A stretch of 42,383 nucleotides of DNA from an uncultured Gammaproteobacteria bacterium (GCA_964645815.1 CAZYCR010000002.1:1-42383); one strand, 5' to 3'; positions 38,849 through 39,171 are shown, numbered from the stretch's first letter. Notes: a model not told the origin generated them from the letters alone. Numbers and translations are program-made.

Positions 38849-38877
38849 ATTATAGGCTAAAGATCTGCCCCTTGCAA
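38849..38877 (-). promoter_or_regulatory. mazG promoter (TTGCAA-17 nt-TATAAT), near-leaderless geometry
   Basis: The -10 is at 38849-38854, ending 8 nt before the ATG (38840). The -35 is the palindromic hexamer 38872-38877, shared with the divergent tRNA promoter. Confidence 0.55.
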
Positions 38878-38900
38878 AAATGAAATAGATTGCATAGAAT
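38872..38900 (+). promoter_or_regulatory. promoter (TTGCAA-17 nt-TAGAAT) of the repeat-tRNA-Ala transcription unit
   Basis: Hexamers at 38872-38877 and 38895-38900 with a 17-nt spacer, 12 nt upstream of the first repeat. Confidence 0.6.
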
Positions 38901-38912
38901 CTGAGCATGTTT

Positions 38913-39094
38913 GGGCCCTTAGCTTCCTCCTTCGCTACTTTGTAGCTACGGCGGATTGGAAACAGCTGGCACGATCGCCAGCCTCGCTAAGGGCATAAAT
39001 TATGGGCCCTTAGCTTCCTCCTTCGCTACTTTGTAGCTACGGCGGATTGGAAACAGCTGGCACGATCGCCAGCCTCGCTAAGGACATAAATTAT
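38913..39094 (+). repeat. two tandem 91-bp structured repeats, each starting with the first 12 nt of tRNA-Ala
   Basis: Copies at 38913-39003 and 39004-39094 differ at one base (G to A at unit position 81). Each starts GGGCCCTTAGCT, identical to tRNA positions 1-12. It then folds into a 9-bp closing helix (GCCCTTAGC/GCTAAGGGC) plus hairpins GCTAC-TTT-GTAGC and GCTGGC-ACGATC-GCCAGC. Confidence 0.9.
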
Positions 39095-39171
39095 GGGCCC
39101 TTAGCTCAGCTGGCTAGAGCGCTTGCATGGCATGCAAGAGGTCACGAGTTCAAGTCTCGTAGGGTCCACCA
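39095..39171 (+). tRNA. tRNA-Ala (anticodon GGC), CCA encoded
   Basis: Cloverleaf GGGCCCT-TA-GCTC-AGCTGGCTA-GAGC-G-CTTGC-ATGGCAT-GCAAG-AGGTC-ACGAG-TTCAAGT-CTCGT-AGGGTCC-ACCA, with G3:U70. Confidence 0.95.

Follow-up and report, generated by a model that had tools for sequence, protein, structure and literature searches.

Two nearly identical 91-nt units stand in tandem directly upstream of the tRNA-Ala(GGC) gene in the DNA analysed here, a stretch of 42,383 bp which makes up a whole contig (hereafter, the window), and each of them combines a split mimic of the 5' strand of this tRNA with an approximate antisense of its nt 3-20. Our preferred reading, to which we assign a probability of roughly 45%, is that the units may constitute a lineage-specific, selectively maintained 5' leader module that derives from tRNA-Ala and modulates the folding of the pre-tRNA and its processing by RNase P. 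A processing or regulatory leader had been among the possibilities raised in an earlier, sequence-only reading of the locus, and it is the one best supported by conservation.

Setting and anatomy of the units

The window is an ordinary chromosomal stretch with a GC content of 41%. Pfam scans, which took ORFs of at least 80 aa that looked like genes and left out overlapping ORFs, recovered MetRS, TatD, the ATP synthase operon, an AddA/UvrD-type helicase, MreBC, PBP2, GreA, LysRS, SerRS, alanine racemase, GluRS, ClpB, DUF5652, DUF5654 and MazG. Neighbouring proteins had their best matches among those named Patescibacteria or Uhrbacteria, and by its sequence the contig is that of a Patescibacteria/CPR bacterium near Candidatus Uhrbacteria. 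In the same scans, which returned housekeeping genes beside a few unannotated ORFs, no integrase, transposase, phage gene or HUH nuclease was detected in the 42-kb contig.

Along the plus strand, a promoter-like site is followed by unit 1, unit 2, tRNA-Ala(GGC) and a terminator-like hairpin (Table 1). No promoter-like site was found in the interval from the units to the tRNA, and we infer that the units are probably transcribed with tRNA-Ala(GGC), as its 5' leader. The succession of one promoter, units, tRNA and terminator, proposed beforehand, was seen as predicted signals both in the window and in a relative.

Two further regions of the contig drew attention. On the minus strand at 16255-16347, a tRNA call of 93-94 nt (ARAGORN 'Asn att'; Rfam tRNA, 41.5 bits) carries an acceptor of the Ala type (G3.U70, A73) and has 27 nt in place of a 7-nt anticodon loop or, alternatively, a long variable arm; it may represent a short insertion or intron, or a tRNA-like gene. 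At about 3150-5230 on the plus strand lies a GC-rich island (58-69% GC) with two ORFs of about 350 aa, which are weakly alike (21% identity, E = 0.006) and had no Pfam match above threshold.

Table 1. Features of the tRNA-Ala(GGC) locus; subunit coordinates are those of unit 1 unless stated otherwise
Feature	Unit positions	Window coordinates	Strand	Remarks
Promoter-like site TTGCAA-17 nt-TAGAAT		38872..38900	+	only plus-strand site upstream of units and tRNA
Unit 1, 91 nt		38913..39003	+	
Copy of tRNA nt 1-12 (GGGCCCTTAGCT)	1-12	38913-38924		
Arm 1 hairpin	13-43	38925-38955		base UCC-U-CC ... GG-C-GGA, tip GCUAC-UUU-GUAGC
Junction TTGGAAA	44-50	38956-38962		
Copy of tRNA nt 13-20 (CAGCTGGC; as RNA CAGCUGGC)	51-58	38963-38970		
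Loop ACGATC	59-64	38971-38976		
Antisense GCCAGC-CTC-GCTAAGGGC (as RNA GCCAGC-CUC-GCUAAGGGC)	65-82	38977..38994	+	
AU-rich spacer ATAAATTAT	83-91	38995-39003		
Unit 2, 91 nt		39004..39094	+	differs from unit 1 only by A at 39084, with a weaker closing helix as a result
Unit 2 antisense		39068..39085	+	11 nt upstream of tRNA nt 3
tRNA-Ala(GGC), 77 nt		39095..39171	+	encoded CCA, G3.U70 pair; ARAGORN and Rfam, 63.7 bits
Intrinsic-terminator-like hairpin CACCC-GCAA-GGGTG (39185-39198) and T run		39185..39210	+	

Tandem Repeats Finder delimited the repeat at 38912-39106 (period 91, 2.1 copies, 99% matches, score 383), and the window contains exactly two occurrences of the 68-nt core, where chance would give 0, which bears out the earlier description of two tandem 91-bp units that copy the tRNA-Ala 5' end. 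The units agree at 90 of 91 positions, and their single difference (G at 38993, A at 39084) falls in the closing helix. Each unit does open with the first 12 nt of the tRNA, as had been noticed, and the copy of nt 13-20 follows after an inserted hairpin segment of 38 nt. When unit positions 65-82 are compared with the reverse complement of tRNA nt 1-20, 15 of 18 positions agree, a result equalled by one shuffle in 2000. In unit 1, this antisense complements nt 3-11 and nt 15-20 of the 5' copy within its own unit, of the copy in unit 2 and of the tRNA. The 3' strand of a unit lies 11 nt upstream of the next GCCCTTAGC, in agreement with the spacing given in the sequence-only reading. It should be added that U(-1) precedes every GGGCCC, and that the AU-rich, single-stranded spacers ahead of unit 2 and of the tRNA have A(-2)U(-1) as their last two nucleotides.

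Unit 1 was predicted to fold at -38.7 kcal/mol into a three-way junction (z = -3.95; none of 200 shuffles was as stable), against -32.1 kcal/mol for unit 2, consistent with the earlier remark that the one-base difference weakens the closing helix of the second copy. The overall three-way junction proposed from the sequence was thus reproduced by folding; the arm 1 pairing proposed with it, TTCCTCC with GGATTGGAA, was not, and ViennaRNA instead pairs the base of this arm as UCC-U-CC with GG-C-GGA.

That the unit is not a tRNA, as had been stated, was borne out by cmscan (E <= 10), which matched 39095-39168 only, and by relaxed ARAGORN, which called the true tRNA only; with introns allowed and a threshold of 80%, ARAGORN found no hidden tRNA or tmRNA in the units. 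Rfam, searched at the gathering threshold and at E <= 10, returned no known RNA family for the unit and no similarity to RtT RNA, and none of its curated models of riboswitch or T-box leaders matched. Two other candidate identities were rejected. Regarding coding potential, the units hold only TTG-start ORFs of 26 and 50 aa, and an indel at the junction in the related locus L001 destroys the start. Regarding derivation of the unit from a whole tRNA by deletion, its 3' part is collinear with the T arm and acceptor 3' strand (12/17 positions in the window and 17/27 in L001, ungapped), an alignment no better than that of shuffles (p ~0.2), and this derivation was kept as a possible origin only.

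Relatives, copy number and conservation

A scan of metagenomes with the unit core gave a sole match, at the same locus of a second Uhrbacteria lineage represented by five assemblies (L001-L004 and L009; the L001 lineage). This is the nearest lineage, with MazG 79% and a neighbouring protein of 454 aa 80% identical to those of the window; it shows the same gene order, the same tRNA with three differences, the same unit before the tRNA and, in L001, a promoter-like TTGAAA-16-TAGAAT at the corresponding position. With a covariance model trained on the units, no further copy was detected in 166 kb, i.e. the 42-kb window and 124 kb of related loci (17 loci); no dispersed repeat family of the MITE or REP type showed itself within this DNA. 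A small RNA family, as had been suggested earlier, is disfavoured by this confinement of the unit to one locus in two lineages. L010 and L011, two species that possess the same tRNA, carry no unit, and the unit is therefore dispensable for tRNA-Ala(GGC). More distant Uhrbacteria, followed via homologues of MazG and of the 454-aa gene, have no tRNA at the locus, and in a third lineage (P0123, 80% identity) the contig ends just before the region.

Copy number varies within the L001 lineage: L001 and L004 carry one unit, L002 carries two non-identical ones, and in L003 and L009 the contig breaks off within the unit or directly behind it. As the flanks of these assemblies are about 99-100% identical, unit copy number changes quickly. 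The distal unit of L002 has CAGG at the junction, and its proximal unit has TTGGAAA, like both units of the window; the sole unit of L001 and L004 has CAGG in place of TTGGAAA. Judging by the L002 junctions, two TTGGAAA units look ancestral, with one lost in L001 and L004, and the presence of CAGG in the only unit of these two assemblies indicates that the junction is not strictly required.

On the minus strand of the window at 39267-39890 lies a GC-rich ORF (60-70% GC against 41% for the contig) with a lipobox-like LTGC and a heptad-repeat N-terminus; it includes a 21-bp tandem repeat at 39751-39806, and a GC-rich hairpin stands at its end (39221-39251). Its sole homologue among 5.8 billion proteins belongs to the L001 lineage (68% identity), so that a search with this ORF for more lineages returned the L001 lineage only. 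The recent insertion of a GC-rich cassette, implied earlier, does not agree with the presence of the same ORF in a relative saturated at synonymous sites. In the more distant relatives L014 and L016, unrelated small GC-rich ORFs occupy its position.

Uhrbacteria vary in the region around the tRNA. In L001 (7378-7620, minus strand), and also in L002 and L004, tRNA-Ala is separated from the conserved terminator by an inserted gene for a GIY-YIG nuclease of about 80 aa, with GC-rich hairpins ahead of it, and the homologous terminator hairpin is kept beyond the insertion; the gene, which the window lacks, may be that of a mobile nuclease carried within the tRNA transcription unit. Immediately beyond the tRNA in L001 (7690-7740, minus strand), AAAGCTACGGAGGGCA on the opposite strand matches the 3' side of arm 1 at 13 of 16 positions in reverse orientation, a marginal similarity (p ~0.045). 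Partial tRNA-like fragments also flank tRNA-Pro(CGG) in a Parcubacteria relative (L005, 1307-1530, plus strand): the upstream one resembles an acceptor 5' strand and D arm, the downstream one is a copy of the 3' part of the tRNA-Pro anticodon arm with a T-loop-like piece, and each is joined to a GCCTGCC/GGCAGGC palindrome, which hints that tRNA-linked partial copies with GC-rich hairpins might be more widespread in CPR. In a Ca. Uhrbacteria MAG (L016, about 3540-3840, plus strand), the 454-aa gene is preceded by a repeat of about 180 bp that occurs twice.

Between the window and L001, only 24% of four-fold degenerate sites in MazG and 38% in the 454-aa gene are identical, which amounts to saturation. 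Across the same distance the unit retains about 80% identity, from 76/99 (L001) to 81/102 (unit 2 of L002), and three blocks agree without exception, of 23 nt (positions 1-23), 21 nt (GCTACGGCGGATTGGAAACAG) and 14 nt (TGGCACGATCGCCA), which include parts not derived from the tRNA. The intergenic DNA upstream matches at 54/84 positions with many gaps, excepting a shared block (CTATTATA) near the MazG start and the promoter hexamers. These comparisons point to purifying selection on the unit between the two lineages. The GIY-YIG gene could in principle have spread the tRNA and its leader by co-conversion, which would mimic conservation. The L001-lineage assemblies, with 0-29 mismatches in 2-4 kb, are too similar for a population SNP test of constraint.

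Where the lineages differ, the changes are of the kind seen in structured RNA. The tip of arm 1 is swapped for a different hairpin in the L001 lineage, a C-G pair is replaced by U-A once in arm 2 and once in arm 1, and the closing helix is re-registered. The pairing register of the unit beats all slid controls. Furthermore, the base at nt 16 of the tRNA D-loop, C in the window, is U in L001, L010 and L011, and both the copy of nt 16 in the unit and the antisense base opposite to it changed in parallel with the tRNA between the window and L001. This triple change, a single event in two lineages, would be expected if the antisense must match both mimic and tRNA; since only two independent lineages carry the unit, the covariation has little statistical power.

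Predicted precursor folding and the proposed leader module

For unit 2 of the window, unit 1 of the window and the unit of L001, each joined to its tRNA, the minimum free energy lies 6-10 kcal/mol below that of the modular state (unit fold and cloverleaf), in equilibrium nearest-neighbour energies that ignore tRNA tertiary structure, base modification and co-transcriptional kinetics, so that this preference for a swapped state may not hold in vivo. In these calculations, pairing of the leader with tRNA nt 3-11 has P = 0.65-0.99, and at equilibrium the true tRNA 5' strand is predicted to be bound by the antisense of unit 2. The 3' acceptor strand of the tRNA is predicted to pair with the first mimic at P = 0.93 in the window precursor with two units, 0.97 in L002 (two units), 0.96 in L001 (one unit) and 0.87 in the window precursor reduced to unit 2; for the true 5' end, P is at most 0.10 in each of these precursors. 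L011, which has no unit, yields a precursor predicted to fold natively, with the true 5' end used at P = 0.79. The earlier suggestion that alternative pairings could sequester the tRNA 5' strand is thereby strengthened, as this is the dominant state predicted at equilibrium for every unit-bearing precursor. In a growing-chain calculation, the local unit fold was preferred until the next unit was complete. By inspection, GCUU of the mimic could supply the 5' strand of the D stem (with a U13.G22 wobble), G3.U70 being kept.

The leader module that we propose would operate as follows. During synthesis, each antisense would first be neutralised by the mimic upstream of it in the same unit, giving a compact three-way junction that would leave the tRNA free to fold and to be cut by RNase P. 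Because mimic and real 5' strand are identical, strand exchange could shift the register: the last antisense would capture the real tRNA 5' strand, and the first mimic, freed in this way, would pair with the 3' acceptor strand. As the swapped conformer would hide the true cleavage site, the module could set the rate or the fraction of productive 5' maturation. Processing would also release a stable, structured leader RNA, and copy number (1-2) would shift via unequal recombination or slippage between the repeated 5' segments. A more specific proposition, which we regard as tentative and on balance doubtful, is that the locus encodes a natural cis-acting mimic/anti-acceptor switch, in which exchange among three strands decides whether RNase P sees the true 5' end. 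As a rarer variant, cleavage at the first mimic could yield an elongated RNA with an insertion of 90-180 nt in the D-loop, and this RNA could accept alanine because G3.U70 is kept.

The proposed effect on processing has parallels in what is reported of RNase P. A(-2)U(-1) is the reported optimum for the bacterial enzyme, and pairing of the leader with the cleavage site is a documented anti-determinant (PMC9433436); efficient cleavage needs a single-stranded proximal leader with A(-2)U(-1) (PMC9433436, PMC7897497), and in a designed RNase P riboswitch, sequestration of the leader regulates cleavage (PMC7897497). Likewise, the leader studied here is predicted in silico to pair with nucleotides at or near the cleavage site. 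The known natural anti-determinants, however, are short leader hairpins or pairings to the 3' RCCA, and the riboswitch is synthetic and masks the leader, not the tRNA body; here, an antisense of 15-17 nt is directed at tRNA nt 3-20, and the mimic built into the unit would buffer it.

Known tRNA-linked elements and alternative explanations

The closest precedent is provided by the tRNA-linked repeats (TLRs) of E. coli, including RtT of the tyrT locus, which number 22 in ten loci; they copy the last 18-19 nt, i.e. the 3' end, of the upstream tRNA and sit downstream of it, in 1-5 copies per tRNA or rRNA operon locus, and they are co-transcribed and released by processing (PMC8144298). Like these, the units lie in a predicted tRNA transcription unit, in one or two tandem copies that reproduce a tRNA end exactly. 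Unlike them, they precede the tRNA, reproduce its 5' end (12 + 8 nt) and add an antisense; they lack sequence or Rfam similarity to TLRs and belong to the phylum Patescibacteria. In view of the mirror-image layout, the added antisense and the absence of sequence similarity, we did not file the units as TLR members.

The function of most E. coli repeats is unknown (PMC8144298), and the units might likewise be a non-functional relic, i.e. degenerate partial duplicates of tRNA-Ala that are tolerated in the leader and vary in copy number by slippage. They could have arisen as a pseudo-tRNA which lost its anticodon arm and received a hairpin, or as an inverted triplication produced by template switching. 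The plain derivation of the unit from the tRNA would fit such an origin, as would the collinearity of its 3' part with T arm and acceptor, the different copy numbers of near-identical strains and the species that have the same tRNA and do without the unit. Against it, neutral sites are saturated while long blocks within segments of other than tRNA origin are 100% conserved, the differences concentrate in the hairpin tip and in compensatory pairs, and the T-arm homology is not significant; we consider a relic unlikely. Action in trans appears to us a shade less probable than that: RNase P would release a stable structured RNA of about 90-190 nt which binds a protein or another RNA, for instance mature or precursor tRNA-Ala through its antisense, or targets of the invariant CUUCCUCCUUCGC and GCUACGGCGGA segments. 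The stable fold and the invariance of sequence, beyond that of structure, in the base of arm 1 and the loop of arm 2 would suit this explanation, and small RNAs from operon spacers (3'ETS-leuZ, RrA/B/F) set a precedent for functional by-products excised from tRNA or rRNA precursors (PMC8144298). Those, however, originate in 3' or internal spacers and work either by base-pairing to sRNAs or through Hfq or CsrA, which they bind, whereas a 5' leader is concerned here; moreover, the invariant segments are paired in the predicted fold, and the element is limited to one locus in two lineages.

An element acting at the level of DNA is very improbable in our view, be it a palindrome bound by a protein or a trace of recombination (a site or scar resembling att or attC, or one end of a small mobile element that targets the tRNA 5' end). 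The unit is indeed an imperfect palindrome within the size range of 60-140 nt, part of a tRNA gene recurs here as direct repeats, its copy number changes in whole units, and it lies in the region around the tRNA that is variable in Uhrbacteria, where the GIY-YIG gene adjoins the tRNA in relatives. Yet the att sites of integrative elements usually copy the 3' end of a tRNA and not, as here, the 5' end, and only 91 bp separate the repeats in place of a bounded, kb-scale element. Integron cassettes carry attC sites with the core motifs RYYYAAC ... GTTRRRY and go with an intI integrase; in the unit, neither a GTT or AAC core nor GTTRRRY was found, and the contig has no integrase, transposase or HUH nuclease. 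The unit gave no matches among viral contigs, phages and plasmids and no other copies in the 166 kb searched, and the compensatory changes fit a folded strand. The tandem att-like scars considered in the sequence-only reading are, on the same observations, not supported. That the second copy in the window is an assembly artefact, arising from a repeat loop in the assembly graph, is more improbable still: the breaks in the short-read contigs of L003 and L009 indicate that assemblers struggle here, but the two copies of the window differ by one base and an independent NCBI assembly (L002) has two units that differ at the junction.

A selectively maintained leader module is thus the explanation we prefer; were the units a relic, the locus would merely be a curiosity. 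Maturation of the tRNA 5' end is usually treated as constitutive, and to our knowledge natural leaders slow RNase P only via short local pairings. If the leader module is real, it would provide a concrete and testable case of structure-encoded control, or buffering, of tRNA maturation, and a mimic/anti-acceptor switch, if true, would be a natural equivalent of the synthetic RNase P riboswitch. The leader module would moreover show that tRNA-linked repeats, long known and unexplained, occur outside enterobacteria and on the 5' as well as the 3' side of tRNA genes, with the locus offering a clean natural system for RNA folding by strand exchange in CPR bacteria, the RNA biology of which is poorly known.
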